A DNA stretch of 63,489 bases, filler included, from Folioceros fuciformis (taxonomy: Eukaryota): assembly GCA_049999805.1 (NCBI GenBank). It is 6 parts of 5 records of this genome, joined end to end, with 100 filler letters (N's around TTAATTAATTAA, not from the genome) between each part and the next. Parts side by side here need not be neighbours in the genome. Positions count along the whole stretch, not along the records: positions 1 to 9,090 come from JBNGIO010004587.1; 5 more parts are not named here. One strand, written 5' to 3'. Of this stretch, positions 1,258 through 60,206 are shown piece after piece. Under the pieces are notes generated by a model, which ran no database searches, was not told where the DNA came from, and saw nothing but the letters and a program-made list of their open reading frames with translations. The stretch's first letter is position 1, and every line of letters begins with the position of its first letter. A program made the position numbers and the translations under genes.

Positions 1258-2515
1258 TCAGTCTCCAACATAACGAGGAGGGCTGGGCCAACGGATATGG
1301 TCCTGTTGATCTTCCTCTTCGGTGAAATCTCGGTCTCCATCGATCTCAACTTGTAGGGCGATAGCTGTGGACGGCAGCTCCCACGACTCTCGCCGCTGCC
1401 AGTCTATGTCCGCATGGTGCAAACCAGGTCGAGGTTCGTCGGCAGGCGCAGGGAGATTATTGTGTATTGCATGTTGTCTCGCCAGTGCCGCAGACAGAGC
1501 CTCTTGGGCCGCAGAATCATCCCACAGCCGGATGCGTTCCCTCTTTTGTCTGGTTAAAAACGGTGTCCCTGTGTCGTCGTCCCGGGTCGTGCCAACCTGA
1601 TGCACTGCAGAGAATGGCAACCCAACTATATCCGCAGTAAGTTAAATCTCAATGCATTGCCAACAAATGCATCGTCAACCGAGACAGCCTGTATCCAACG
1701 AATCCACTTAACGCGGCCCTGCCTTATTCGGTCGCTTGCAAAAAACACAGCACAGGAACGCACCGACATGGCTTGGACGCCTGACAGGAGGATCTATATC
1801 CATATCCGCATCCGCATCCGGAGAAGTTGAGCAATTCTTAGACAAGAGTCTCGTCATTTCGCCGTCCTCGCTGCCCGACACAGTCACACACCCCTTGAGT
1901 ACCACACTCAACGCGCCAACGGGACCGCCGGCTCAATTCACACTTCAAATACAAGCAAAGACGAATCAAACGCATCAGCATCCATTAGCTCGTAAGATTA
2001 GGCGATTCGCGATTCGAAATCGGGTCATGGCCAGCATGAACGGTAGAGCAGACGAGGAGAGCACGCGTGAGGCACACTCCGAATCCCCACCGGTAAGAGG
2101 AAATGTACCAGGAGGAAGGGCCTCTACGGTGATTGCAACTAGGCGGGGATAGCGTGCCAACAGGCCAAGTGTCGTGTTCACGATCCAGCCCAATTTGGCT
2201 GGAGGCAAGAATTGATGGATTCAGGCAATTCCGTAGAGGCGGACAGCTGACTTCCCCCAGTGAGCGCGAGCGGCCAGGGATCGGGATCGAAGCCGCCGTG
2301 AGTTGGGATGGATAAGTGCGACGGGTAGAGATCACTTGCGGAACGATTCCTTCCTCCTTGGGCAATTCGTTGGACATCCTCCTCCTCTTTGGGCATAGTT
2401 GTGCGCCTGCTTCCCTTCTCTTCGATTCTCTTGCCCCCGCTTCTTCAGAATCTCTTGCAATCATCGTCGGTGGCGCTGGCTGGCTTGTGATGTTGTTCTG
2501 TTGGCCATCTGACAT
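1258..2515 (-). CDS. Uncharacterised plant 'WDDS-IDW' family protein, paralogue A (multi-exon, exon limits approximate, possibly truncated)
   Basis: Exon ~1258-1597 reads WDDSAAQEALSAALARQHAI...PRPGLHHADIDWQRRE, matching paralogue B. The upstream exon motif NPSILASSQIGLDRE matches NPAILEARTTGVDRE of paralogue B, also at DNA level. Confidence 0.55.
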
Positions 2516-3766: not shown

Positions 3767-5690
3767 GTGGTGAAAATATCAAAAGTTGGGAGCAATTGGT
3801 AATAATTATGGAGATCACCTAAAATCTCAATGTGTGAAAAAAAAATATAGGATGAAAAAACGAAAACTAGATTACTAAGAGCATTATCATTAGGAACATT
3901 GTCATAATGAAAGCAGGTTTCTCATAATGGAAGCAGGTTCTAAAATCTCAATTGATGTCGGTAGTAAAGAAGAAAATTGATAAAACATGATAATAATTTC
4001 ACAATTTTGTAGGTAGGTCAAGAGTTATATATCACATAACTAGATAGTTTAAGAGTTATGTAACACATAACAAGTTCGCATGGACTTTTCAAATATAGCG
4101 ACTATAGCAGCTACCACTTGGTGCGCATACTACATCAACTTGACAACCTTGGCTGCCTTCAACTCCGAAAAAGAATGCAGCATAGTCAAAGAAAAAACAA
4201 CAAAGTCAAAACGAGAAAACAAGAGCAGCAAAGTTTAANNNNNNNNNNNNNNNNNNNNNNNNNNNNNNNNNNNNNNNNNNNNNNNNNNNNNNNNNNNNNN
4301 NNNNNNNNNNNNNNNNNNNNNNNNNNNNNNNNNNNNNNGCAAAGTTTAAAAAAGCAAAAACGAAAAAAAGAAGAAAAAAGGGGCGCAGAAACAAGAAAGT
4401 CAAATGTGGTACGGCGGGGTTACAAGAAAGTCAAATGTGGTACGGCGGGGTTACGAGGCAGCTGGTTTCGGGAATCTAGCTGCAGATGCCCTAAACCCGT
4501 GGGAGCTTATGAAAGGCCGCTTGCCTGCAACAACCTCAAGGCTCAGCTCATCAAGGAGTCGAAGGCAACTATGAGCGTCATAGGGGCATTGCTTTTCTTG
4601 TTTAGCATTTCCTGGTAGAGGAAGTGGTCTCTTTTGGTAGAGGTACTGAAGAGGTCACAGCCTCCTCCGAATCCGGAGACTATAGGAGTATGTACATGTT
4701 ATGGACGATCCCAACATCATTCTCTGAATCCAAAGAAAATCAGAGAATGACATTTAGTTCGACATACACCATGCGTGCTATTAGTGGTCGTTCACAATAG
4801 CCAAAACAGGAGCTGCAAGGTTGTTAACAGTATGCCATACACCCACCTGTCGCGCACGAGCATATCCCGGTCTAGCCTCCCTACAACGGTCACATGTCTA
4901 TCGTGAGAAGATTGGACCATTGCCTCCCCAGTGCGACTGTGTCCCTGGCATACACTTGTCCGCGGTTGAAACGCAGGCATGCATTTTATCCCGGGCTGAC
5001 AGAGCAAACGTCTTTTTTGCTCTTCAACCCACACTGGTAACCAGGGTCCCGTTCCACATCGCTCATTACTGCCCACCGCCAATGCCGGAACTGCCCATAC
5101 CTGGGGGGAGGGGAGGAAAATTGTTGGACGACAATCCGCTTTGCTGTCACCAGGCCCCGGAGTACATAGAGATGCAGGTGTTGCATAGACCACTTCATGA
5201 ATCTATTTCTGCTGTGTAAAATTGTACACGCGGGAAAGATGATAGCACAGTCTGCTCACAAGTCTCAACCCCAAAGTTGGCAGAACAAAGAATTTGTAGA
5301 CTCAATACTCGACTCAATGGGATCAATCAGTCCCAACATCATCGTCGTTCATCGCAACTCCATGTCAATCAGTATCAGTACTTTATCAGTAATTTGTAAT
5401 GAATGCACACCACAGTCGCTTCCCCTAACCTGTTCGCCAGAGTACTATGTAGTAGTAGGATAGGCTCCATGTGATCGTAGATGACAATAAGAAAGCCTTG
5501 ATGTTACCCGAAGCCAGACCTCAGGCATGACTGCTTGTAGCTCCTCTGCGAGGCCCTTTGCCACTAAAATAGGCCGTCCCACTGTGCTTGTATACGAAAC
5601 ATGGCAATACTGACATCAAGTGATGCTGATGCTGAGCAAAGTGCATCCCATGGCATAAACAGCTCTCAACCGCACCATCACCAGCTAAGA

Positions 5691-7612
5691 TTAGGAGTGA
5701 ACTCCTCGGCTATGAGTGATATTGGCGACAGGCTGCCACTTCTGCTTGCAGACCTTGCAAGACCGAGCTTTCGCCTTCCCCCGATCCCGAACATCACTGC
5801 CATTATGCCTGTTGGTCTTTCGTCTACTCCTCCGCTGCTCGCCATGAAAATTCCCTTCCCAAGGGGAGTGTGGAGCTTCATATCTGCAGCCACCTGAAAA
5901 GCATAAGACACGTTAGCGTCCGCAACAAAGGTACGAAACAGACGGGAAAGCAGCACAATTGCCAGAAGGATGAACGGTGCACCACCTACGTGATAAGCCT
6001 TGAGAACTACGATCTGTCCAGGCTCCAACGGTACTAGGAGGTGAGGATTTCTCCACGGGAACATCACCCCAGCCAGTAGGAACAATAAGTGTATCACCCA
6101 ACCCAGAAGTAACATGAGGCGCATAACCCCACCCAGTAGTAACATGAGGTGCATCAGCCCACGCAGTGGGAACATGAGGTGCATCAGCCCACGCAGTGGG
6201 AACATGAGGTGCTTCAGCCCATCCAGTGGGAACATGAGGTGCTTCACCCCACCCATTGGCAACATGAGGTGCTTCACCCCACCCATTGGCAACATGAGGT
6301 GCTTCCCCCCAACCAGTAGCAACATGAGGTGCTTCGCCCCAACCAGTAGCAACATGAGGTGCTTCGCCCCAACCAGTAGCAACATGAGGTGGATCACCCC
6401 AGAGCACAGGTGACCCCTGGAGAAGACCCTCAGTTTTGAACTCCTGACTTCGGTCATAAGCACGAAACTCGTAGCTACGATGGCGAGCATCCTGGTTCTT
6501 CCACTTGCCGTAGCTGTTGCCACCAGTGCTGTTACGCCGCTTTTCCTCCATGGCAGCTAAGCTATCAGCCGACTCCGGCACATCCAATATCTCTCGCTGC
6601 TCCCAGTCGATGTGCGCCAGGTACATACCAGGCCTAGGTAAAAAGGAACGCCAATGAAGACCCTGCTCCATGGCCCGCTGTCTCGTCTCTGCTAAAGCCA
6701 GCGCCTCCAAGGCCCCAGAATCATCCCACTGCATTATGTTTTCAAAGTCCTCATAGGACGTGTCCCTCTGGTAGCTGATGGAGGGAATGTCCCAGTCGAC
6801 AGCCGAGGCCCCTGCATGCGCAGGAAAATGTGAAATGCGTTCCGCCACCACACATGCATGCATCACACAAGAGTGGTTGGCAAAGGAAAGAGCACCTACC
6901 GACTTGACGCGCCTCCCAGGGGTCCCTGCATGCATCAAAATCTGCCCTGTGCCTCATTTCTGTGCCTGCGTTGCCTGCGAAGCGAAAGCCCTTACACTAC
7001 CGCACTCAACCCGCCGTCACTAAAACCAATTGTCTGTCCAATTGCCGCTTGAATCGCAAGCGGTGCGCCGCAGACAGTTTTGCAACCTGAAAGACACAGG
7101 AAAACAGCAGAAGGACAAGCGTCATGAGCTCCAAATAACCGACCGACCGCACACCAAATCGTTTCCACCATTCAATCAAGCATAACCTGGGAGCATTCCT
7201 CACAGGAGGCGGAGCGTGAGGAGAGGCAAGCATAGATACCAGGAAGAAGCGTAATTGTGGCAATTCCACCACAGGCCGTAATCGCCTCCGCCACCTCCCT
7301 CAATTCACGATCCACGCCAGTTGTGCGGGCCTCAAGAATGGCCGGATTGCGGCGGCGGGTGGCAATTGCGTAGCTGGGGTTCGGCACGAGGGAGGAGGNN
7401 NNNNNNNNNNNNNNNNNNNNNNNNNNNNNNNNNNNNNNNNNNNNNNNNNNNNNNNNNNNNNNNNNNNNNNNNNNNNNNNNNNNNNNNNNNNNNNNNNNGG
7501 GGAAGGAGATGGCGGAGAGCTGGGGTTGTGGCAGGGAGCGGCGAGCGGAGAGGCTGCAAAATGCAGGACACGGAGCGGCGGCCGGCAGAAATGCCCGGGC
7601 CGTCTTTGGCAT
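5691..7612 (-). CDS. Uncharacterised plant 'WDDS-IDW' family protein, paralogue B, with C-terminal GW/WG decapeptide repeats
   Basis: The main exon (~5990-6811) encodes WDDSGALEALALAETRQRA...LPRPGMYLAHIDWEQRE followed by (xTGWGEAPHV)n. Predicted intron 5894-5989 (GTAGGT...TTTCAG) joins a final exon 5691-5893 ending in TAA. 5' exons and the start are uncertain because of the N gap at 7399-7498. Confidence 0.7.
6050..6410 (-). repeat. 30-bp coding tandem repeat, about 12 units, encoding [AP][TN]GWGEAPHV
   Basis: AACATGAGGTGC... recurs with a 30-bp period on the + strand and is in frame in ORF 5913..6938. Confidence 0.95.
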
Positions 7613-8950
7613 TCGAGGCGCGCGGGAGCCAAGGGGAAGAGCGATGAGAGGAACTCCTACCATCCAGGCTGTTGAGATGCCAGCCTTATATACTCACGCC
7701 AGACACGGCTGAAAATGGGGGAGAGATCCAGATCCCGGAACTGGAGCCGGCCAGCGGCGGCAGCTACGTTTGGGCCAGGAAAGGAAAGCGTAAACTATTC
7801 TGGCGCTGCGGTGTCTTTCAAACGCACGGTGTGCTGTGTTGTGGAGTGGCGCGGTGTGATGTGGTGCGCTGTGCTGTGCTGTGCTGTGTTCCGTCGTTCA
7901 TCCTTCCGTTTAGTAATCTGCTCTCTCCTCTATCTATCCTTCAATAAAGTATTATGAGATCGTGAAACACATATATGTACAGTACTAGAGAGTTCAAACA
8001 TTAGCATCAATATTATATCCAACGCAATATGAGATACAAGATGCACAAGACTTGTTAAAGGTGCTTGGTTTCGATCATTTGGGGGAATGAAAAAAATTAA
8101 GCTACATATTGAGGTATGATGCTATCTTCTTACTTGACTTGTCTTTCTCTAGTTAATTGGGATTAGGTTTAATTTATATCGTCAGCTGTTGTGGGATTGA
8201 TGCCTAATTAACTGTCATAAAATAAAAAGAAATTAGAGCAGTAATAATCTCACATAAAAGAAATGACATACCACCAGGTAATCAAACAAAAAGTAAAATT
8301 AATCTAGATTCATTAAGATTTTTCTGTATAGTGTTGTAAAATAATCACCACTCCTATTAATGGGCAATGGTGTAAAATAATTAATTGAAACTAGGCTCAT
8401 CTTAGCGAGCTTGGTTGCATTGTTCTAATGAACTCATGTTTTGAGTCCACTTAGTTCTCCTTTTGCATTGGATTATAATATTATTTATTATTTTAATTTA
8501 ATAATATATTTTAAGAAATTCTCTCACAAGAAAAAGAAGCTCCCTCCTGTATGTACAAACACAGGTAACACATACGTTCCTTCAAAAGATCGCGAGGGGG
8601 AAAAAGAAGGACCAGAATGTGCCTCCGTTGGCAAGAATGATTCCGTTACATGGATGTTACATGTCTGTATGTACAGTGCACCTCCATTCCATCCGTCCGT
8701 CCGGATTTGAAAGCCAAAGCCAGCAGAACCGTACGCCGTAATCTCGCTGACAATGAGTGGGGCCCGCCATCAAGAAAGCACCTTGCGGCAAGGCGAAGGC
8801 CTTGGACGAGGCACCCAGTTCATGATCCCATCCGGTTTACAGTTCGCTCTGCACTGATTGCCAATGCACTGCCCCCTGCACGGCACAACGCCATTTGACT
8901 TTATATCGTTTTCTATTCACTCTACTCAACCCGCAGAAGCAGCCACGCAG

Positions 8951-10419: not shown

Positions 10420-12580
10420 TCAGACAGTGGTAATAAGAGCAGCTTCTTCCTCAGCTGCGAGATCTGCGGTAGTCGCAACTGTTTTGTACGTGTACCTGCG
10501 GGCAAAGAATATGAAGAAAGATAGGTTGATGGCGCTCAATCCTGCCAGAAGCCAGTAGAAGTAGTCTAAGTGGCATCTGTTCAGGTTGTTCACGATCCAG
10601 GGGACTTGGCTGCCTCTGCCCGTAATGCTGTTGGTGACTGTGATGATGAAGCTGCTGAGGAAGGATCCGAACCCGGTGATGCTGAGGCAAAAGGCAGTGC
10701 CCAGACTGCGCATATGGTCTGGGGCTTGGTCGTAGAAGAATTCCAGCTGACCGACGATGGTGAGGGAGTCCGCAATTCCTCCGACCACGTATTGCGGGAT
10801 TAGCCAGAAGATGCTCATAGGGAGGAAGTCGTCGGGTCGGTCTAGCATGTCATTCTCGGTTGCTACTTTGAGGCGCCTGATCTCTGTTGCCGCAGCAAGT
10901 GCCATGGATATGATTGCCAGAAACATGCCAGCTCCCATGCGTTGGAGTTGGGAGAGTCCGCGGGGGTTGTTGGTGAACTTGCGGAATATGGGAATGAGGA
11001 ATTTGCCATACATGAAGGTTGTGATCATCAGGGCAAGACAGTTGAATAAGGTGAAGGAGGCAGCAGGGATGGTGAAGTTCGGGCCTAACCGCCCGTCCAG
11101 AGTACTAGCTTGGCGGGTGAAGAAGGTGAGAGTTTGGGCATAGACCGTCTGGAACAACAAGTTGGTTGCCCAGATTGGAATCATTCTGACGAACAGTTTG
11201 ATCTCCTCCACCTGGGTCAGGGTGCTCAGCCGCCAGCGACTGATAGTCTCATCCTTGTTGTCTAACCTACTGGTGCCATCAGGTTCGATGGCGGCCTTGT
11301 CAAGGGATCTACAACACAGAAGAGCAATGTGTGCTCGGGGTGTGAGTGAGCGATGATGCGCACTACTGACGACGACAGCTTCCACAGACATCTGAGGTTG
11401 GGAGGGTGATGAAATGAACTTCACCTCAATGAGTCTGTGTGTCGTAATTTTCTTCTGCCAGCGTCGACATAACTTTGTGTAGGCTCCTCGTGCAGCAAGG
11501 ACACGTTGGATGGAAGTGGAACTCTCCACTTCGATATGGCAGCAACGATGACCTGAGCAAATTGGGTGAGAGGACTTCCTTGTGGCAACTTGTGCCTGTA
11601 GAGAGGAGTGCCTGCCAGGAATGATAGTATCGCGAGTCCCATGCCGGCTGTTACTAAGCCATAGCCCCAGCCCCAGCCAACGTTGTCCTGGATGTACACA
11701 ACGACAGTTACAGAGAACAGAACACCAGCTGCTATGCCGCAGTACCACAAGTGGAAGAAGGAGTACTTGTTTGCCTTCTCTTCCTCGTGATCTTCGTCGA
11801 ATTGGTCTGCCCCAAGTGAGCAGACACAGGGCTTGATGCCTCCTGTTCCGACGGTAATCATGTACAGGGAAAAGTAGAAGACTGCAAATTGCCACGTCGA
11901 AGCTCTTGGACAAGGAGACGATAAGTGAGCACATTGAGGTGGCTTCAAAGATGGCAGTGATACAGCGACGGTCAACATGATTCCTCCCTGAAACAGAAGA
12001 TTTTAAGCTATGGTCAGAGCAGTGGACCTTACACTACGGACAGAAGAATGCAGATTTGAAGACATGCAAAGGCGTGATGTTCACCAGTAAGTGAGCGATC
12101 GAGCCGGCAATGACAGTCCAGTAACGGCCCCAGTAGGTATCGGCGATGAAGCCGCCTAACAGGGGGGTGAAGAAAGCAACCCCACTCCAGTAATTCACAT
12201 GTTTGGCGGACTCATCAAGCCCCTCGTGCAGCTCTTCCGCCAGGTATGTAACCAAGTTCGAGGCAAACCCGTAGAATGCAATTCGTTCTGCTACTTCCAT
12301 ACCTGTGAGACAGATTTCTTGTCAATCACTGTTCTCAATGTTTAATCTTACAAACATGAAAAGCTACTGGCCATGCATGTCAGTTGCGGAAAAGCATGGG
12401 TGTGTGCCAAGGCTTACTGAACAGGGGAAAGCATGCCTTCCATCCTCCTGTCGTCACTCTCCTGACAGGGCTACCATGGAGGTCCACTGACCCATCTGCT
12501 ACCACCTCATCAGACTCAGAATGGAGCAACCTATCCTTCAATCTGCCCTCCCCTCCATGCTTGACCTCATCCCGAGTCAT
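10420..12580 (-). CDS. NRT1/PTR family (NPF) transporter, copy 1 (4 exons)
   Basis: Motifs DGSVDLHG..TGGWKAC, EVAERIAFYG (ExxER), GTGGIKPCVCSLGADQFDE, TQVEEIK, IFWLIPQY, GQLEFFYDQAPDHMRS, LDYFYWLL; three GT-AG introns. Confidence 0.95.
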
Positions 12581-13075
12581 CGTTTTGAGGAAGTGAGGAA
12601 AGAAATCACCTATCAAACCAGTCACTGCCCACCCCCCCTTCCCCACAGCCACGGTATTCAGCTATCCAGAATTTTATCCCCCTTCACGGAAGACCGACCG
12701 CAGCAGCCTGTCTGCCCAACCAACATAGCTTTGATAGTCTCCTGCACAAGGTCCACAAGAATGAGCAGACAGACCCGCTCATCTTTCATCCTCATAGGTC
12801 CCTTAACAGGAAACAGAGGGGCATCTTAGATTCCACGCCTCATGGCACCTTCTAATATATTCTGCGTAATTGGGCGTCCAGCCATGACAGCCGGCAGAGG
12901 TAGAAGCTTGACACTCGTCGCCCGTTTTTGCACCCAGCAACTAACGTGAGAACCAATGGGTTTACCGACACATCACTCGCCTCCTCTTAACACCTTATCA
13001 AGTGCCTCTCCGTTAGGACCGGAAATAATTGCCTACCGGATTTCGACACCTATCTGACACGACTAACGACACTCA

Positions 13076-15194
13076 CTAGTTGAGTTCATTAACATCACGT
13101 CTAGTCTCATTAGCATGATACGTGTCACTAGCGTCGTCTTGTACTCGCGTTACGGTTTTCTTGTATCTGTAAACCCGAGCCAAGAGGAGGAAGACGAGGA
13201 AGTCGGCAGAGCAAAGAGCGGCCAGGAGCCAGAAGAACTTATCGAGACGTGAGTCGTGAATGCTGACACCAATCCAGCGGTGGTGACCGGCTCGACCGGT
13301 TACCCGGTTGGTGAGCGTGACGATGCCCGAAGCGAGGAACATGCCCACCCCGACGCTGGTGCAGTGGAAGGCGGTACCCAAGCTCCGCATGTGGTCGGGC
13401 GCCTGGCCGTAGAAGAATTCCATCTCGCCGACCGATCCGAGCGCCTCCGCTACCCCAACCAGCACGTACTGAGGGACCAGCCAGAAAACGGAAATGGGCG
13501 AGGAAGCGGACCGCCTTCTCCGTTCCACCACGGCCGCACAGACGTGGCACGAAACGGCAACCACCTTTCCGACTCCGATTCGTTGGAGTGATGTGAGGCC
13601 CCGGGGGTTCCCGGTCATCCACCGAGCGACCGGCGCCACCGACCGGTCGTAGAGCGCGCAGGTTGCGAACACCGCGATCGAGACGAAGATGTTGGTGTTG
13701 GCGGGCTGCAGGGAGACGTTCTTCCACACGTGACGATCCATGGCGCTGGCCTGCTTGGTGAAGAGCGACAGAGCCTGCCCGATGCTGGCCTGGAAGATGA
13801 GCTGGGCCAGCCATATGGGCACCATCCCCACGAAGAGCTTCACCTCCTCGACCTCCGAGACGGTCGCCAGAGTCCATGGCCCGGCGGGCGTGCTGGGATC
13901 CACGGCAGCGGCCTTGTCTAAAAACCTGCATTCAGATGCAGGTTCCAGCTGTGTCAGTGGAGTGCAGGGTCACATGTTTGTTGAGAAGGGTTTGCGCAGT
14001 GGTCCCCAAGGAAATTTAAGGAGCACAAGGGGCAGGACTGCGGAACTATCGTGCCTGAAGGATTGGCTGTGGGGCATGCGGCGTCGGCCGGGGATTGGGT
14101 CCGGGAGCTCGTGGAGGAGGGTCTTGTTGGTGGGGACCTGGACGTGGAGCTTGGAGAGGGCAGCAATGAGGACTCGGGCGACCTGGGTCACCGGGCTGCC
14201 GATGGGCGGCTGGTAGCGGTACAAGGGGCTCCCGCTGAGGTAGAGGGCCGCGGCCACCCCCAGGCCCGCGGCGGGGATGCCGAAGCCCCAGGCCCAGTTC
14301 ACCCTCTCCTGAATATAGACGATGACGGTGACGGAGAAGATGGCGCCCGTGGCGATGGCAGTGTACCAGTAGTTGAAGAAGGATCGCTTCTGGTGAGCCT
14401 CTTGCGGGTCCTCCTCGTCAAACTGGTCCGCGCCGAGGCTCGAGATGTTGGGTCGCATCCCGCCTGCGCCGATAGCGACGATGTAGAGGGCGGCGTAGAA
14501 GATGAGCATCTGCCCGGACGATGCCTTGGCGCAGGGCTCTTGGAAGGGGCTCGCGCACGGGGGTGGCTTCAGTCGGTCCAGGGATGCTGTGAGCGTTAGC
14601 AGGACGTAGCCCTGCCATGGTCAGAAGGTCAGACCCTGCTCGTCACCGGAGAATGAGCGCGGAGTAGTTCAGACGCCCACCGTCAAGTAAAATACGAGGA
14701 AGAGGTTGACGGTGGGGAATCGGCCCAAATAGGCGTCAGCTACAAAGGCTCCGATGAAGGCAGTGATGTACGCGGTTCCCGACCAGTTGTTCACATTCTG
14801 CACGGCAGCGTTGAGGCTTTGGTGCAGCACTTCTGTGAGGTACATCACCAGATTTGCGGCAATGCCATAGAATGCCATTCTCTCCATTACTTCGTATGCT
14901 GTGGGTCGTCAGGAATCCATTCAACACATCACTGCATGCTCAGCACGCCTTGACCACTTCAAGCATGCAATATTGTGCTAGACAGTCCTGCAATGCAGCT
15001 ACCAACAGCCGACAGGGCACTCCTCGGAGCCCTGTCCAGAATTCATGGAATACGATGTTACCGAAGATAAACGAGCAGCCTTTCCAGCCTCCCGTCCTGG
15101 ACTTGACGGCAGGTTTGCCATGGAGATCCAATGTCCCATTGGCGGTGGTGCCGTTGTGCCAAGCCTCCTCCTCGACATTCCCCGGGATGGTCAT
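13076..15194 (-). CDS. NRT1/PTR family (NPF) transporter, copy 2 (4 exons; third intron appears to be GC-AG)
   Basis: Motifs GTLDLHGKP..TGGWKGC, EVMERMAFYG, GAGGMRPNISSLGADQFDE, EVEEVK, VFWLVPQY, MEFFYGQAPDHMRS. Confidence 0.93.
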
Positions 15195-16219
15195 TTCTGG
15201 CGTGCTTCAAACGAGGAGCCTTCCTCCACTCTCACCAGCTCCGGATCCGACCACAGCTTTCTGGGGCCGGCCAAGGGGCCAGATGAAGGGAGTCCATGGC
15301 ACTCGAGCAAGTGACAAAGGTGGGCAGCCAAGAAACCGGTGGTCCATCATGCTCGTACCCCATTTCGATCAATGGACATTTTCAAGGCCTGAACAACACA
15401 TTGCAAGCACAAAGAGANNNNNNNNNNAATGGACATTTTCAAGGCCTGAACAACACATTGCAAGCACAAAGAGAGCTGGTGGCCCCACACTGCAACTACC
15501 CCCCTTTCGGACTCTCTAGCTTGACCAAAGGCTTATTTCCGAGATCAAGCTCCACACTCAAGAGTTATTTTTCCTCTTGCGGACGAGAAAACGCTCATGC
15601 AATGAAGACATTTGCTGTTTTGATTCTTGGAGCATGACTTATTTCCGGTATGCAGTGCGGTACGGTTCTCGACAACATGTCCATAGCTGGATATGTGAAG
15701 TGTGGTCCTGGCCAGCTCCCAACCAACTCGCCCTCGTGTTTTAGGATCAAGACTTGGAACGTGCGTGAAGGAGGCCAAGATTTGGGCACAGGCATTTGAC
15801 TGCTATGTGGAATACTACGACCTGATCATGTGGAAGGCCAGCTGCTCATGTTTGCCTTTCAGGCTGCTACGAGACACTACAGACCACTATCGATGGCAAA
15901 ATCTTGCCCGCAGCTGACCAAAGATGGTGCTGTGTGTCATCCTCCTGCACAATTCTTCGTCATCGGTATATAACTGAATAGGGGTGTGCTTCTGTTTGGT
16001 GTACTGACCTCAAATCAATAGGCTTGGACGATCTCGTCAGTTCAAAGGCTTGAGTCCCAGAAGCTGAATGTGGGAAACGGGCACAACTAACTTATCCAGT
16101 TGGGCAGAAATCATTTTTGTCTTCAGGCGGGGCATATAGATGTGCTATTAAATTGCCTTCAGCTTTTGGGCAACTTCCTTCATCCATGGCTGCTGGAGAC
16201 TGAAGATAACATGAGTGAC

Positions 16220-18429
16220 TCAAGGCAGAATTGGCTTCAGCTCAACGGCTTGTACCGCAGTATCTTTGTCTTCATCCTTTACCACAGAGCTCTCCACTTT
16301 CTTGTACTCGTACCTGTGTGCGACGAACAAGAAGAGAAGGAAGTCCAGTCCCGTGAGGGTGGCAATGAGCCAGTAGTAGCTTTGCACCTTCGACCTGTTG
16401 AGGTTGTTGTTGAGGATCCAAGGCTGCCGCCCTCCCCGACCTGTGTACTTGTTGGTGGTCTTCAGCAATGCGGTGCTCAGGTAGCTGCCCACACCCAGAA
16501 TGCTAAGGTACGCAGCACTCCCGACACTTTTCATGTGGTCCGGGGCCTGGTCGTAAAAGAACTCCATCTGGGCGACGATGCAAAATGCGTCGGCCACTCC
16601 CCCTATGACGTACTGCGGCAGCAACCAGAAGATGCTGATAGGAATTGTCTTGAAGGGATGGTCCAGCAGGCCATGGTCCTCGGCTGCCTTGTGCCGTTTG
16701 CCTTCCACCAAGGCTGCCACTATCATGCTCACAAAGATTAGGAAGATTCCAATCCCCATCCTAGTAAGCAGGGTGATGCCCCGTGGGTTTCCGGTGAACC
16801 TGCGCGTCACAGGCACCAGCACCCGGTCATACAGTGGAACTGCAGTGACGATGGATATGGCGGAGAAGAACTGGAAGGATGCCGGAGGGATCTTGAAGGA
16901 GCCCAGTCTCGTGTCCATGCTAGCTCCCTGCTTGGTGAAGAACGTGGTGGCTTGGGAGAGGACTATCTGGAACATTAGGTTGGTTGCCCAGATGGGAAAC
17001 ATGCCCACGAAGAGCTTGCACTCCTCGACTTCCGTGACCGTGCAGAGCTTCCATGGGCTCGCCCTGCCGGGTTGGACAGTGCCGTCGATAGCTGCTGCCC
17101 TGTCTAGAAACCTGGTCGGACACCAACCGCAAGCAACACGATTCTGATTAGCATCGGCAAGCGAAGGACTTGTGCAGGGAACAATGATAGTTCGTGCAAC
17201 TTTGAACTTTTCCTTAGCAACCTGAAGTTCTCGGAGTGAAGCATCTGCCGCCTGCCTGGATCTGAAGACTTCCTTTCCGGAGACTCGTACAGCAAATCGA
17301 TGTTTCGAAGCTTCCAGTTCCTCAAGGAGGCTACTATGACCCGAGCGAACTGTGTGAGAGGGCTGCCAGTAGGCGGCTTGTGGCGGTAGTACGGAGTACC
17401 CACAAAGAAGACTATGAGAGAAACAACCAGGAGGACAGCAGGAATCCCGAATCCCCATCCCCACCCCACGTCGTCCTCAATGTAGACGAGGATGGTGGTG
17501 GAGAAGACGACTCCGATTCCCACTGCCATGTACCACCAGGTAAAGAAGGATTTTTTCTTGACATCCTCCTTTGGATCCTCCTCATCGAACTGGTCCGCTC
17601 CCAGAGTCACCACACACGGCTTCATTCCCCCCGTCCCCAGCGACAGCACGTAGAGGGCGACGTAGAAGAATCGAAGCTGCCTAGGAGATGCCTCGATGCA
17701 GTTAGGGGGCGCCACGCAGGCTGGCGGCCTGAGAGAAGGCACGGACGCAGCCACCGTCAGCATCACAGAGCCCTGCCAAAAAACAGGAGTAACAGCCTTA
17801 AGCAAGGACTGGACGTGCAAGCCTGAGAGTGATCAGCAGAAGCCTCAGGTCGGGCAGAAAATGACCGCAACGTAGAAGACGGAGAAGACTGTGATCGTCC
17901 AATACCGCCCCAGCAGGGCATCGGCAACAAAAGCTCCCAGGATGGGAGTCAAAAACACAGTTCCTGACCAGTTGTTCACGTTGGAGATCGCCGTGGGCGT
18001 GGACTGGTGCAGCACCCCCGTCAAATAGGTGATTAAATTCACCACTACCCCGTAAGATGCCACCCGCTCTGCCACCTCGTTTCCTGCATCACGTTATTCA
18101 AACCCACCCACAACCGTCAGCTCAACAACGTCAACGCCAGGCCGGCCATGCTCGATTCTTTCCTCTCAGCTTGCTTTCATCTCAAGACCATAGAGCTACA
18201 GACCGAAGATGAAGGCGCAGGCCCTCCATCCTCCAGTCTCGTCCCTGTTCACCGGCTTCCCGAACAGGTTGACGGTGCCATCGAGTGTGACTTCCCGATG
18301 CTTAGACCCCTCCCCGTTCCCCACACGCAGTTCCTCAGGATCCTTGCCCACTTTCAGCACCGTGTCTCCTGCGCTCTCCATCGCCGGAGTCACCTTCAAC
18401 TCTGCAGGTCCGTCTTCCACGCATCTCAT
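16220..18429 (-). CDS. NRT1/PTR family (NPF) transporter, copy 3 (4 exons)
   Basis: Motifs DGTVNLFGKP..TGGWRAC, EVAERVASYG, GTGGMKPCVVTLGADQFDE, EVEECK, IFWLLPQY, MEFFYDQAPDHMKS. Confidence 0.95.
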
Positions 18430-25722: not shown

Positions 25723-27693
25723 CTAAAGATGAAGGTCGAGATCCAAATCTTCCGATGTATTTGCACACTCTTTGCAAGGACCAATTTCTTCTTTGACCTC
25801 AATCCTCCTCCGCCATGCCAATCGCCTCCTCTTCCCGTCGTCGCGAGGGGAATGGGAGGGCGAGGAGTGATCATGTTCCGAATGGGAACAGGAACAGGTA
25901 GTCGCCTCTTTTTCATGCTGGGTAGCAGGGGGTCCAGCAGCATCGTGGCCGTGAGGCTGGAGGTGTGACGAGAGATTTGGATGAGGACGGGCCTCGCCGG
26001 CTGTTACTGTTGCTGCCGCTGGCCAGTCCGAGCTGTCGCGATTCCTGAAGTAGTAATTGACCAGTATCTCCCTTCTCTGACCTGAAGAGCATCCTGACGG
26101 GCTAAAGGGTGAGTTTCTCCTGCCTGCACCTGCACCTGCACCCGCACCCGCACCCGCACCCGACGTGGAGGAGGAGGATGGAGATGGACGCGGGGAGGAA
26201 AGCGGGGAGTTGGGAGAGTAAGGGTAGTTGGACGTCGACTGGGGTGCGGGTCTTGAGTTTGCATCACCGTCGTCAGACACCTTGGTGGGATGATCTACCG
26301 GTGCTTTGAACTCAGGCGGGGATCTGAAATGATCTGCCCGTGGGTATGAGTGCGACTGGGGAGGTAAGTAAGAGAGATCGGAGTTCCCCGGAGCAAGGGG
26401 AATGTGAGAGGGGAGGGACAGGCTGGTTAGGCAAGACTGCCCCGGCCCCTGGAGCTGAGACGGATGAGACTGGGGAAAAGTGTGTGACTCGGGAAAGGGA
26501 TAGAAGTTCACAGACGCTGGGAGGTGAGAGAAGGGAAGAGGATGGGGAAAGGAGTTTTTGTCTCCGTGAGGCTGGGTGCTCATCGGAGCCGCTGCATTCG
26601 TGTTTGCGTAAAACACGTTGCTAGGGATGGGAGCCTGGGAAGGAATCGGAGAGGGAACTTGATACACCCAGAAATGCGGGGTCGACGCTGCCGCTGTGCC
26701 AGAGGAGCCTGGCGGCTGGAGACTGTTGGCGCCACGGACATTTGCAACTGCCACACAAGAGATGGACCCGGCTCCCAGTCCGGAAGGTTGAATATCCGGC
26801 ATTGATAGTTGTCGGAGCTTAAGTTGGTTAGCTTGTTGGTTGGCTCGCTCTCGAGCTCGCTCTCGATCCTTTCTGTGAATATTCATGTGGCCTCCCAGTG
26901 CCTGTGCTGTACGAAATTCTCTTTCACAGAAGCTACAATTGTAGAATTTTGGAGGCCATTGATGCGTTGTGCCGCTGCTGGATTGTAAATCCTCCGCAAA
27001 TGCACGAGCTTCCCAGGCGTCTTCCAAGGCTGCCTGCGCTGCTGCAGCCGTGAGAATTCTAGAAGAATAGGCGGCAGGCGCTGCTGGAGGTGGCACAATT
27101 TCGGAAAGGGTGGGAGGCACTGCTGCTGTCTCTGAAATTCTTGTCATACAACTTATAACACTCGCTTGCGGATGGATGATGACGGACGATGAGCATTCTT
27201 CAGCCTCCCTCCTATCCTTCCCCAGTTCATTTTCGTTCCTGTTGTTTCCGCCTTTCATCCTCTTATTCCAGGCTTCATCTTCGTACATCCTACTTCCGTC
27301 TTTTAAGCCTTCTTCATCCCCTTCATCCTCCTCCCTTCTCTGCATGAACTGCTTCGAGTGCTTCAAACCTTGCTTGTCCTCCTCGTTCCTCTGCTTCAAA
27401 CCTTGCTCGTCCTCCTCGTTCCTATGCTTCAAACCTTGCTTGTCCTCCTCGTTCCTATACTTCAAACCTTGCTTGTGCTCTTCCTTCCTATGCTTCAACC
27501 CTTGCTTGTCCTCCCCGTCCCTGCTATGCTTGAACCCTTGGTTCACCTCCCCTTCATCCTCCTCCCTCTTATGCTTGAACCCTTGCTTGACCTCTTCATC
27601 CACCTCGCTCCAGCTATGCTTCACTTCTTCGTGCTCACCTTTCACATCTCGAAAGTCCATACGGGTGTCACCTTTCACACCTCGAAAATCCAT
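25723..27693 (-). CDS. Single C2H2 (QALGGH) zinc-finger repressor with C-terminal EAR motif, SUPERMAN/ZFP-like, intronless
   Basis: [27 protein letters not shown]; ends EDLDLDLHL-stop; 656-aa uninterrupted ORF. Confidence 0.9.
27345..27620 (-). repeat. ~33-bp coding tandem repeat ([11 protein letters not shown]-like) in the zinc-finger N-terminus
   Basis: TGCTTCAAACCTTGCTTGTCCTCCTCGTTCC recurs on the + strand. Confidence 0.85.
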
Positions 27694-29322
27694 ACCTGTA
27701 TGGACGAGACCTCAAAGCGAAATGACAGTAGTTCTGTGTGTCACTGAGCACACCAACTACTCTCTACACAGAAACTGCTGCCATCTCGTTGAGCTCGCAA
27801 GCCAGCTAACTTTCCTAGCAGCGTAGACATAAGGCGCTGGCTTTGTGCCTGGTCCAGGAGAGTTGAGGCCGGCCCAAAGATCCAACTGCGCCCTGGTTTC
27901 TTCAGAGGAAGCGGCCTTGCACGTCCTGTCTGTCTGTATCCCCGTATCCCCAGCCTTGCAAAGCAGGGTGCTGCTTTACGATTAAACGACACACAGCCTC
28001 ACACCAGAAACGAGCCAGACGTGGGGAGCAAGTTTTGACACTGAAGGATCCTTTGCTCGGCTATATCTTGTCACGAGACCTACCGATTTCACTACATGTT
28101 GTTAAAATGACAGACGGCCGCATCTATCGGGCCCACCCTGCAACCTCGTTCAAGTCGTTACGTCGTGACTCAGAAGATCACACTTGCTTCCAATTCTACA
28201 GTGACATGCAAGGCCAAGCCCTCTTTCAACTGGGGCAACTGTGTTTGTGCCACTATTTAGTCTAGCTTACATACGTGCTGAGGAAGGTGATCATCAACCC
28301 CAGGTTGGATATTTGTTGTCTCTTGCTACTATGGTAGGTGTCTGCTGCTTTCTGCTTTGCCGACCGACGCTTGCAACTTGACTGCCCCTGTAATTCCCCT
28401 TGTTGAACGTCTCGTCGTTTCTTCCAGAAAGTTCTCGTTTTAGACTGGAGAATACCAAAACCATCGTCCCGTCGCTTACTATCATGAGAATGGTACGAGC
28501 TATGCTCTGTGACTGACACGCCACAAGTATGAAACGAAAACAAGGACCATGCCACTTTGGCAACACCGTCAATGCATTCGGCTGAAACACAAGAAAGTTC
28601 TATCCTTGCTGCATACTTCCCCTTCTGGCATGTCGGATTCGTTCCTGGCGAGCAACGAAAGCATTCCGCCTGCAATCCCGTCTGGTATCCCAGTCGCCTA
28701 CGTTTTTTCCGCCCGGTGCCCAGCTGACAAGAATCTGGCCACGAGTGCACAGTACCGGCTTGGCCCTGACGAAACGACACTCTCCGTCTACAACTCCAAC
28801 GTCTTCACTCAACGCTTTCAACACAGATACATTCAGTGAACAGACACCTTCTGCCGGCTGTGGGAATCTAAGAGCTTGGCCTTGCTGGGTGTCTGCTTCC
28901 GGAGATCTGAGTCCCTCGCTCCCTGGCCCCATTGACTCACCAGCCCACAAGCTCGCAAATAGTGCTATGACAACTGACATATTCACCCCACGTGCCGCTC
29001 TTCATCTTCGATGAAAAAGAGGAGGAGGAGAATTTCATTAAAGTTAACTGAGACGGATTTCCGCCGTGGGGCACCACAGCAAGACGACTCAACGCCACTA
29101 ATTCATCCCCTTCATCCCCACCAGACAAAGCCGACACGACACAGGGCAAGACAAAGATAGCTCTGGAAGCAACTAACCTCTCCTTCGTAAGTCTTCTATT
29201 GCGATGGTGCAACATGATCGTTCAGTTGTTTATGAAGGCTCGAAGAATCCTAAGCCCAGGTAGGTATTCTCAACTATTCAATCACTGGCAGCACAAACAA
29301 GTTTTCCTACATTACGTTCCCA

Positions 29323-57625: not shown

Positions 57626-59557
57626 ATGGGAAACATGAGGTTCCTTTCCAGTCCATCATCGCTCACAAGGTGTGACAATACCTAACTCCTTTGTTGGTAA
57701 GCAATTTTGTACATAATTTGCAGCACACAAAGCTTATGCCCAATAACCTCTCGTTAGTCCAGCAAAAGACAAGCTAGATAGAGTTGCTTCTTGTAAAGTC
57801 CTGTTCTTTCTCTCAGCAAATGCATTCTGAGTAGGTGTGTAGGAAATTGTGAATTGATGCTGGACTCCCTCTGAAGGACAAAAATGGTGGAATGCTGCGC
57901 TAGTATACTCACCGCCGTTATCAGTCCTCAAAATGCGTACCTTGGCGCCAGTGAGTCGTTGAGCAAAGAGAACATAATGTTGAAAAGTCGAGAGGGCTTC
58001 ACTCTTATGATGAAGAACATATACAGTGCAGTAACAGCTCCACTCATTGATAAAGGTTATGAAATAGGCGGCACCACCAAAAGATACTGTTGACATAGGT
58101 CCACAAATGTTGCTATGGATGGTATGCAATAAACTTATGGCTCTAGAAAGGTGTTTATCCTTATAAGGCTGAGAAACGTCTTTGTTGGTCTGATAGGCGA
58201 CACAAAAAGCATGATCATCAAAAGAAAAAGACAAGGGTTCTCTAAAGACACCGTTTTTAATGAGAGGAGACAGCTTATGAAAGTTGACATGACCTAGTCT
58301 GCAATGCCAAAGTTGCATTGGTGTCAGATGAGGACTAGTTGCTACATAAGCTGACACCGAAGGGATGAAGCTTCTAACATCCAACAAATACAAGTCATGG
58401 TAGGGGATTCCAGAGAAAATTTCTGAACAGTTGCCTAGCTGTGAAATAGAGCTCCTTGTGTGATTAAAACACACTCTACAAGCATGTTCTTGTGATAACT
58501 TAAGTACTGACATAAGATTCTTAGTCATGGATGGTACAAAAAGGACGCTTGATAGAGTAAGAGTAGACTTATCTAGAAGCTGAACCATGATTGAACCTGT
58601 CCCTTTGATAGCTGAACCATTGTCATCACCAAGCAAAACGAACTATCTGTCATTAGAAGCTGATTTGAAAGTAAAAAAGAAAGACTTATAAAAAAAAATA
58701 TGGCTAGTTGCTCCTAAATCTAAGAACCACATATCAGTTTGTATCTATATGGATGAAAGACAAACAGCAAGAATGGTAGGTAATTTGACAGTCGAGGTAG
58801 GCTTGGTGGAAGCAACATTTGACTCGGGAGGGCCATCCCTCCTCGGCTCACCAGACTTCTTTTTCCTACAGTCGTGCTCATAATGACCTAGAATCTTACA
58901 CCAATTGTAGCTAAAAGTCTTACGCTGCAAATAAGGCTGTCTTAGTGTGGTTGGCAAGCCTCTGCTTCTACCACGCCATGAGCCCCTGCCCTTAGCTGTG
59001 AAGAGTACTTTGCTACTATTAGGATTTTGTCCCTTATGTCTAGTCAGGGCTCTTGGGCGCTCTTCTCCAAGGAGTGCACTAAACACGTCCTCGAGTGATA
59101 TGTTGGGCACACCTCCACCTGCAAGTTGTTGAGCTGAGTCTATCTTAGCATGTTGAGCGCTGATAAAATAAAAGTAAGCCTCCGGTAGTGATGCTAGAAA
59201 GGTAGTTGTTGCCTGGACTTCTGTTAGGACAGTCCCACAATATGCAAGGTCAGCACATGCAGTCCTGAACTTGTTAATGTAGGACTCCATTGAATCCCCA
59301 TCCTTCATCCGGAGATAGAATAAACCTTGGAAAGAATGAACCAAAGAGGCTGAGCTCTTGCCCTTATATATGGTTGTAAAATTTCTCCACACAACTATAG
59401 AGGTTACGGCATTCAGAGTGTAAGGCATCATTGTCCTATCCAAAGATGCAATGATGATGGAACATGCACGCCTATCCTTCCACTTCCAAGCTAGGACATT
59501 GTCAACATTTGTTGGAGTTGGCACTGGTGATTGCTCAGAACCATCGACAACTCCCAT
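57626..59557 (-). mobile_element. Degenerate Ty1/Copia gag-protease-integrase
   Basis: UBN2-type gag (W..KDRRA, LRMKDGDSMESYI, FLASLPEAY), decayed zinc knuckle, WFLDLGATSH, LWHCRLGHVNF, rve (LRTDNGGEY, YTPTQNAFAERKNRTL); contains stops and frameshifts. Confidence 0.93.
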
Positions 59558-60206
59558 NNNNNNNNNNNNNNNNNNNNNNNNNNNNNNNNNNNNNNNNNNN
59601 NNNNNNNNNNNNNNNNNNNNNNNNNNNNNNNNNNNNNNNNNNNNNNNNNNNNNNNNNGCTGTGTTGTCCAAAGTGTGGATTGCCGATTAAACTTGATGAT
59701 ATTGTACCAATAGCTTCGGCAAATTGATAAAACCCTTGCTCCTGTCGCCTCTCAAGAGAAGGTGATTGCTGAAGGACTTCATCCTCGATGCTGGTTCTGA
59801 CCCTTTCTTGTTGTTGAAACTCACGGGTCGGAGTAACAATCCCAGCGTCGTTGAAATCTAAATCATCATCATCATCAGGCTCGGATTGCATCCTTGCAAA
59901 CAATCACTTAAATGCAGCAGCATGAGCTCGGAGGTAAAAATAACTCCTTTTTAGTCCATCCTGACTCAAGCGCTTTGTGGATCACATAGGTTTGATGCAG
60001 CTTGTTGATCATATTGTGGGCAAGCAGGTGGGGTACCCCTACAAGGCACCCGCTCACATGTATCATGGCCACATCAATCCCACGGTCGTTGTAGGCTTCC
60101 CTGGAATCGCTCCCCTCTAAGCCTGGTCAGCTACTGTGGACTCCACATGCTGAACAGACCCCTGGGAAATGATGGGTTCTCTTTTTTTTTTGGATTTGTG
60201 AGTGAG

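Follow-up and report, generated by a model that had tools for sequence, protein, structure and literature searches.

An eleven-fold tandem repeat of a signature tryptophan motif in a WG/GW-rich family protein of Folioceros fuciformis

A stretch of 63,489 nucleotides from the genome of Folioceros fuciformis (GCA_049999805.1), filler included and here called the window, carries on its minus strand an intact, spliced gene for a 360-residue protein. The protein joins a short conserved N-terminal module to a tryptophan-rich tail with eleven decapeptides in a row, and it is almost certainly a member of the WGRP1/AT5G03990-like family of plant proteins, whose tails are rich in the dipeptides WG and GW (tryptophan beside glycine). 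Judging by its sequence, it is unusual only in that the signature motif of this family is copied eleven times in a row. That the protein binds Argonaute is a plausible proposal by analogy with its relatives, to which we give somewhat less than an even chance; any role in silencing would be argued from the same analogy.

The gene structure was derived from contigs of three sequencing runs with the same species label, each covering most of the stretch, X1 and X2 being of DNA type and X3 marked 'RNA?' by guess. The contigs were compared over 5300-7390, where a fourth run with a small share, X4, placed none; a stretch that the DNA runs leave without cover, about 6420-6629, was left uninterpreted. 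The X3 contigs skip three segments reading CT..AC on the plus strand, that is GT..AG on the minus strand, with 0 mismatches, while none of the X1 and X2 contigs over 5300-7390 shows these three joints; X3 was therefore taken as RNA-derived. Joined by their coordinates, the exons give one open reading frame (ORF) of 360 codons, which runs from the ATG at 6957-6955 to the TAA at 5693-5691 through coding exons 2, 3 and 4. The parts of the gene, in the order of transcription, are:

7240..7398, minus strand: exon 1, 5' leader, the part covered by an X3 contig (aligned at 7238-7390); no ATG inside
7087..7239, minus strand: intron 1, 153 nt, GT..AG, in the 5' leader; X3-only joint 7084/7238, cut +2; GTATCT..TTTCAG
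6900..7086, minus strand: exon 2, with leader 7086-6958, ATG 6957-6955 and the first 19 1/3 codons (MRHRADFDACRDPWEARQV-)
6812..6899, minus strand: intron 2, 88 nt, GT..AG; X3-only joint 6810/6899, cut +1; GTAGGT..ATGCAG
5990..6811, minus strand: exon 3, with module, linker, array and putative ancestral motif; from X3 joints and the ORF
6534..6761, minus strand: family module, residues about 37-112 of ORF-B; predicted helix, helix with WDDSGA..EA, extended LPRPGMYLAHIDW, helix
6063..6392, minus strand: 11-unit array, encoding (A/P)PHV-x-T/N-G/A-W-G/A-E/D
5894..5989, minus strand: intron 3, 96 nt, GT..AG; X3-only joint 5891/5988, cut +2; GTAGGT..TTTCAG
5691..5893, minus strand: exon 4, coding part, with basic C-terminal region, KQKWQPVANI (5747-5718) and TAA 5693-5691; from the X3 joint, the ORF and the end of the closest relative, P0139
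5300..5690, minus strand: 3' untranslated part as far as covered by an X3 contig

Before splicing, a long minus-strand open frame at 5913-6953 reads the module '...FENIMQWDDSGALEALALAETRQRAMEQGLHWRSFLPRPGMYLAHIDW...' and then the decapeptides, and the frame of the array is fixed on both sides by the conserved motifs near the two ends of the protein, which share its frame. Pieces of X3 contigs cover the array region; the repeat exon is transcribed and stands in the frame that yields the GW motifs. The start codon is supported by 'PWEA', encoded in exon 2, which aligns with 'FWEA' at the N-terminus of P0139. The 288-nt leader covered by X3 holds 0 ATG against a shuffled mean of 3.75, zero being reached in 78 of 5000 shuffles, and GC content by codon position over head and module (0.59/0.46/0.64) is as in other genes of the window. 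An earlier reading of the DNA, made from the sequence alone and hereafter the sequence-only reading, had placed the gene at 5691-7612, taken here as a single ORF from ATG 7612. Its lower end coincides with the stop codon, and its upper limit was given up, because in the spliced form the frame from ATG 7612 stops in exon 2 at the TAA 6993-6991, and the protein starts 33 nt beyond that stop, at ATG 6957.

It is very improbable that the long ORF goes untranslated, whether as part of a non-coding transcript, as a decaying pseudogene, or because an upstream ORF from ATG 7612 is the one served. The 5' end of the transcript is not fixed, since a gap of N's (7399-7498) adjoins exon 1 and the X3 contig extends 19 nt into it, and an upstream frame from ATG 7663 or 7612 would cross this gap to reach the TAA just before the start. 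Nevertheless, the three-exon ORF is intact and holds the family's N-terminal, module and C-terminal motifs in frame, the covered leader is free of ATG, and GC by codon position has the pattern typical of coding sequence in the module but none along the upstream frame, where it is flat (0.61/0.58/0.55 and 0.68/0.71/0.65). In the GC-rich exon 1 all three frames are open, and the upstream ORF is therefore not special. It had no Pfam match, and its 52-residue piece gave no usable match in the ESM Atlas. With flat codon-position GC, three open frames and no matches, the upstream ORF as a real protein of a bicistronic transcript was judged unlikely.

Both upstream start codons, ATG 7663 and ATG 7612, lie on the far side of the gap (7399-7693, minus strand), and a joint frame to the TAA needs continuity across the gap; a TATA-like 'tatataagg' stands near 7690. 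At the other end of the gene, the X3 contig of exon 4 runs ~875 nt past 5300, which would mean that the 3' untranslated region is very long or that another transcript overlaps it; an X2 DNA contig begins at the same offset.

The module lies directly upstream of the array, with the tryptophan codon of WDDS at 6728-6726 and that of IDW at 6605-6603 (minus strand), as the sequence-only reading had described it (WDDS..EA..PRP..IDW). That reading had also likened the core to an uncharacterised family widespread in plants, and HMMER and Pfam searches bore this out, the family being one without a Pfam model. The conserved N-terminal part of the family, about 120 residues, consists of a W-rich head and WDDS..EA..LP.PD.YI..IDW. 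HMMER was run exhaustively against 1.84 billion representatives, the query being the 142-residue module; 17 proteins came out at E<=1e-3, of which 6 reached E<=1e-10 (best E 2.8e-17). Columns W28, D30, S31 and W69 are invariant both in the 16 HMMER matches other than P0005 and in 114 aligned sequences. Members were named in the lycophytes Selaginella and Diphasiastrum, the ferns Ceratopteris, Adiantum and Psilotum, the gymnosperms Welwitschia and Cryptomeria, and the angiosperms Nymphaea, Tetracentron and Tasmannia; the family with this module reaches back at least to the lycophytes. No named bryophyte or alga was among the family matches, neither group having been specifically searched for. 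With the Nymphaea member as seed a search gave 206 of 847 candidates, and with the papaya member 169 of 441; almost all of these are called 'uncharacterized'. P0005, which was excluded from every family count, is a protein of 596 residues with tandem units of ~37 residues like the second helix and PRPG stretch of the module (E 1.2e-16 over 8 stretches), and it has neither the WDDS nor the IDW motif.

Domain and structure databases added no name to the module. Pfam returned no family at E<=1 for the window protein and none for its exon pieces, for the Arabidopsis member P0208 or for P0139, and none at E<=0.01 among 17 family members scanned; precomputed Pfam domains were absent from the 120 matches listed in each of the two seeded searches. 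Residues 40-190 of the unspliced ORF, as query in a word-index protein search, yielded 512 candidates, none at E<=1e-3, and a sequence-profile search of the PDB with the module 0 matches at E<=1. Foldseek with the model of the module, a small one (predicted template modelling score, pTM, 0.36), found nothing at E<=0.001, its best E of 7 being meaningless, and the ESM Atlas gave only unnamed streptophyte clusters for P0208. A likeness to the Gemin2-binding helix of SMN (WDD-T/S-x-L..A) was dropped, as no Pfam SMN, PDB or Foldseek match appeared. AlphaFold2 with the family alignment placed helices at 17-26, 31-48 and 81-92 (P0002 numbering) and gave the module a predicted local distance difference test score (pLDDT) of 68-94. 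The tail scored 38-55, with neither helix nor strand over residues 110-273 of the exon-3 product, and is accordingly predicted to be intrinsically disordered.

The closest sequence, P0139/P0004, has 53% identity to the window protein in the module (HMMER), and BLASTP of the whole ORF against the 433-residue P0139 gave E 1e-37 over residues 14-359. Both proteins begin with 'WEA..(G/D)WD.P..(F/Y)EDF..IMQWDDSG' and end with 'KQ(Q/K)WQPVANI'; the tail of P0139 is longer and Gln-rich. The two differ in between: P0139 has one 'ATGWGDVAVDK..VWAD', whereas the window protein has eleven units and then 'PTGWGDVPVEK..AWTD'. The last array unit (TLIVPTGWGD) together with VPVEK..AWTD is the counterpart of the single motif in P0139, 'IRATGWGDVAVDK..VWAD', and on this match it is the ancestral single copy of the motif.

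Tandem Repeats Finder (TRF) reported one array, at 6062-6401 (minus strand), with period 30, 11.3 copies, 89% matches, no indels and a score of 393. It comprises 11 in-frame 30-nt units at 6392-6063 (minus strand), in the frame of the ORF 5913-6953, where the sequence-only reading had counted about 12 decapeptides; the units it listed are all there. They are:

ATGWGE, three times
ANGWGE, twice
PTGWAE, once
PTAWAD, twice
TTGWGY, once
TSGLGD, once
PTGWGD, once

GWG occurs 7 times within the 11 units, and (A/P)PHV precedes every unit but the last, which has TLIV. P0139 has one copy at the matching place, which shows the array to be an amplification of a motif that the family already had, a recent one by tandem duplication of a 30-bp unit; the tryptophans therefore stand at an exact spacing of 10 residues. 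The sequence-only reading had tryptophan kept in almost every unit while other positions drift. The first half holds, tryptophan being present in 10 of the 11 units (in TSGLGD a TGG has become TTG, Leu), and the second does not, as P-H-V is kept just as often (10 of 11) and the DNA of units 2-3, 4-5 and 7-8 is the same or almost the same.

Such uniformity could also come from a neutral, recent, microsatellite-like expansion within a disordered region that tolerates it, the module and the single ancestral motif doing the work and the ten further units contributing nothing. We hold this to be unlikely. With a period of 30 nt the number of copies can change without a shift of frame, the DNA identity between units reaches 100% (89% overall), the closest relative has one copy, one unit is already without tryptophan, and the GC content at third codon positions (GC3), 0.25 against 0.53-0.82 in neighbouring genes, looks driven by the repeat rather than by codon optimisation. 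On the other hand, the frame is open through all 11 units, and the contigs matching the array come from the same run as the spliced form. A neutral expansion would in any case be compatible with either an Argonaute or a non-Argonaute role of the ancestral motif.

Beyond the array, tryptophan-rich tails are a property of the whole family. Of 189 representatives retrieved, 174 were counted, namely those that showed the module pattern and whose tail was no shorter than 80 residues. Their median tryptophan content is 5.3% (range 1.1-8.6; n=174), and 165 of the 174 tails hold at least 3 GW/WG dipeptides. In total, 1208 GW/WG were counted against a shuffled mean of 402 (standard deviation 17.9, maximum 446; 200 shuffles), about three-fold above what composition predicts, although such counts are not independent events because the sequences are related. 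The window tail, with 271 residues, has 5.5% tryptophan and 16 GW/WG, the family medians being 5.3% and 6. We defined a signature motif, [CSTAL]-G-W-G-[DE]; its core [CSTAL]-G-W-G lies at most 130 residues from the module in 133 of the 174 representatives. Its consensus reads F-S-C-T-G-W-G-D-A-E-E and follows I-D-W after a median of 44 residues, a figure from 164 of 209 sequences in a set that was not de-duplicated. The G, W and G columns reach a conservation of at least 90% in two alignments of 114 sequences, as much as the module itself, and they align at the array region of the window protein. The pattern of tryptophan-rich tail and motif holds from lycophytes to eudicots, so that the expectation that orthologues would keep their GW/WG tails was borne out from lycophytes to angiosperms. 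The enrichment of GW/WG is thus family-wide, and the signature motif is amplified in the window protein.

A link between this family and Argonaute has been published. The Arabidopsis member P0208 is NP_568132.1/Q93XY4, a 'FK506-binding-like protein' of chromosome 5, tied by name and chromosome to AT5G03990, which PMC7835529 writes as 'FKBP-like (AT5G03990)'; compared directly with the window module it gave E 4e-9, 32% identity being reached across 72 residues. Karlowski et al. (2010; Nucleic Acids Research, NAR 38:4231; PMC2910046) place AT5G03990 in their Table 2, with a dos score of 35.08, among 20 predicted WG/GW Argonaute binders and annotate it as similar to At3g51940, renamed WGRP1 by those authors. 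In that paper WGRP1 is described as having ~120 conserved N-terminal residues and a WG/GW-rich C-terminus, and its residues 258-396 pulled down AGO4, not AGO1, in vitro. WGRP1 very likely shares the module; the start encoded by its primer, M-G-K-W-N, resembles the family starts MGSW, MGDW and MSNW. On the basis of that work a 2026 paper calls At5G03990 an 'Argonaute binding protein' (PMC13082862). The Argonaute-binding idea is therefore already in print for this family, and the window protein cannot be called a new adaptor in an undescribed pathway, as the sequence-only reading had it. Full-text literature searches on WGRP1, AT5G03990 and AT3G51940 returned 1, 3 and 3 papers respectively and no functional study beyond PMC2910046, and those on the family no in vivo silencing phenotype.

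The reading that we prefer, to which we give close to an even chance, though slightly below it, combines a module that docks to a partner, a disordered tail that offers its tryptophans to Argonaute pockets, and an eleven-fold amplification of the motif. In its architecture, a short N-terminal module, predicted to have two to three helices, with an extended 'LP.P..Y...IDW' stretch, is followed by the disordered, tryptophan-rich tail and a basic C-terminus with a conserved W-Q-P-V-A-N-I. The module would dock the protein to its partner, the tail would present tryptophans as multivalent ligands to the Trp-binding pockets of Argonaute PIWI domains, a step with a precedent in the in vitro binding of AGO4 by the WG/GW domain of WGRP1, and the amplified array would increase valency. 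About 10 residues is the smallest reported distance at which a pair of tryptophans can occupy two pockets of the same Argonaute. The family signature also agrees with what 10.1101/2025.10.18.683247 lists for pocket ligands, namely a conserved tryptophan in a disordered region together with a conserved acidic patch.

Several points stand against this reading, beginning with the array as a hook. The sequence-only reading had proposed scoring the tail with a GW-domain predictor, and the outcome went against it. The dos score was re-implemented from Table 1 of PMC2910046 (dec 8.6; threshold 6.99 half-bits); the re-implementation gave 31.34 for P0208 against the published 35.08, which is close, not exact. 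On this scale 132 of 134 family members reach at least 6.99 and 30 of 134 at least 30, while the array domain (residues 157-218) reaches 3.78, below the threshold, and a single array unit adds up to -0.30 half-bits with the Karlowski matrix. In the same re-implementation a 3-residue seed gives 6.8, and only a 26-residue segment past the array (residues 266-291) reaches 9.2. It is composition that keeps the array below threshold: His, Val and Pro are abundant in every unit, and the plant hook matrix penalises H (-3.3), V (-2.4) and E (-1.3) (PMC2910046 Table 1). The array is composed of 17% Ala, 13.6% Pro, 10% Val and 9.1% His, in contrast to the family tails with their abundance of G, N, D, S and E, and it departs from the flank rule of hook platforms (small, hydrophilic or charged residues, with H, V, L, I, M, Y and C depleted). 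In favour of a hook, the neighbours of the tryptophan in T-G-W-G-E are small or acidic, and the region is predicted to be disordered.

Other points against it concern the history of the array and the published evidence. The array is young, with 89% unit identity and several identical units, so that its internal conservation does not single out tryptophan, and selection may not have tested it; the evidence for selection on tryptophan is the family comparison, not the array itself. The coding frame of the array shows a small excess of synonymous differences, 14 of 40, the other two frames having 6 of 40. Although X3 contigs match the array region, none of those examined crosses the whole array, and its copy number therefore rests on the window assembly alone. 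The kinship of WGRP1 and AT5G03990 is drawn from the annotation in PMC2910046 Table 2 and from matching descriptions of an N-terminal module and a WG/GW tail. In that paper the AGO4 result was obtained in vitro with the distal WG/GW region of a paralogue from another species, not with the signature motif. Section 24 of 10.1101/2025.10.18.683247 regards Trp-dependent association alone as weak evidence for pocket binding.

In an alternative reading the tryptophans do not serve Argonaute: the GWG motif and the tail would bind another partner or act as condensate 'stickers', and the pull-down of the paralogue would reflect an in vitro property of any GW-rich peptide. We consider it unlikely, though it is one of the two main rivals of the preferred reading. 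The motif sits at a fixed place and in a fixed context (median 44 residues past the module), which looks more like a specific docking motif than a generic hook platform, the array fails the hook score by its composition, and no in vivo silencing phenotype turned up for the family in the literature searched. The caution in section 24 of 10.1101/2025.10.18.683247, that aromatic residues in disordered regions also drive condensation, fits this alternative as well. Yet in PMC2910046 AGO4 was pulled down and AGO1 was not, which argues against pure stickiness; the tails of the family hold three times the GW/WG that composition predicts; and a tryptophan followed by an acidic patch is what section 13 of 10.1101/2025.10.18.683247 describes for pocket ligands.

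Taken further, the Argonaute reading would make the module and the near-invariant GWG-acidic motif a dedicated Argonaute adaptor, present from lycophytes to angiosperms and turned by the eleven units into a high-valency form in this lineage. We think this improbable. If it were true, units at exact 10-residue spacing could cluster several Argonautes, or else the array could occupy Argonaute pockets as an endogenous competitor, in the manner of viral GW-mimic suppressors.

The family has one functional datum, the in vitro AGO4 pull-down of 2010, and it lacks a Pfam model, a solved or confidently predicted fold match, and a phenotype in the literature searched. The present analysis adds its depth to the lycophytes, a GWG-acidic motif that is near-invariant and keeps its distance from the module, and the three-fold enrichment of GW/WG; together these offer mutagenesis a more precise target than 'a W-rich tail'. 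The window copy, with 11 copies of the motif against 1 in its closest relative, is a natural experiment in valency. A specialist is unlikely to be astonished, given that the Argonaute link is in print and that the array fails the published composition score.

A second copy of the module lies on the same strand, ~4.5 kb downstream of the main gene:

1258..1641, minus strand: second, diverged module copy, WDDS..PRPG..IDW; tblastn E 3e-9; BLASTP 41% over 73 residues, E 2e-14

It has the lineage-specific 'PRPG' in common with the main gene. Its frame stops 45 codons past I-D-W, and the ORF contains no GW array and no Met; the copy is either a tandem paralogue or a pseudogene. An acceptor-like 'ctctgcag' was seen within it, near 1604.

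Elsewhere in the window, a row of ORFs at 10420-17832 (minus strand), which we take to be NPF/NRT1-PTR-type transporter sequence, looks like a tandem gene cluster, and an ORF at 25723-27711 (minus strand) has a single C2H2-type zinc-finger motif and N-terminal repeat units. A long ORF at 44883-47324 (plus strand) starts with 'LLVLDLNGLLL', presumably resembling an FCP1/NIF-type phosphatase there, and continues with many tandem units of ~22 residues, 'VEDIVYxPSHKRNSARVRPGRE', with short gaps of N's between. Copia-like gag and integrase ORFs at 57734-59686 (minus strand), adjoining gaps of N's, belong to a retrotransposon.

Several known systems resemble the window protein in part. The GW motifs of SGS3 and SDE3, which act via AGO1 pockets according to 10.1101/2025.10.18.683247, combine a disordered tryptophan with an acidic patch, as does the family signature GWG-D-A-E-E; SGS3 and SDE3 are proteins unrelated to the family, and in the window array the acidic patch is cut to one Glu or Asp per unit. 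The C-terminal domain of NRPE1, SPT5L/KTF1 and GW182/TNRC6 have, like the window protein, reiterated GW/WG in a disordered region, and all of them, the window array included, are built by tandem repetition with a recurrent tryptophan; SPT5L has 45 highly conserved repeats (PMC2910046 section 19). Unlike NRPE1, SPT5L/KTF1 and GW182, the window protein contains no polymerase, KOW or silencing domain, its host module is unrelated to theirs, and the unit composition of its array is disfavoured by the plant hook matrix; a hook role of the array is a candidate one. The nearest match in architecture is AT5G03990. Both proteins have the module, including W-D-D-S and I/V-D-W, followed by a WG/GW-rich, probably disordered tail with the signature G-W-G-(T-G-W-G)-D-A-E just past the module, and neither has a Pfam model. 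The head before the module comprises 47 residues in the window protein against about 75 in AT5G03990, whose tail abounds in N, D, G and S (dos 31.3), in contrast to the window array, which is rich in A, P, H and V (dos 3.78; both re-implemented). Unlike in AT5G03990, the signature motif has been amplified 11 times in the window protein.

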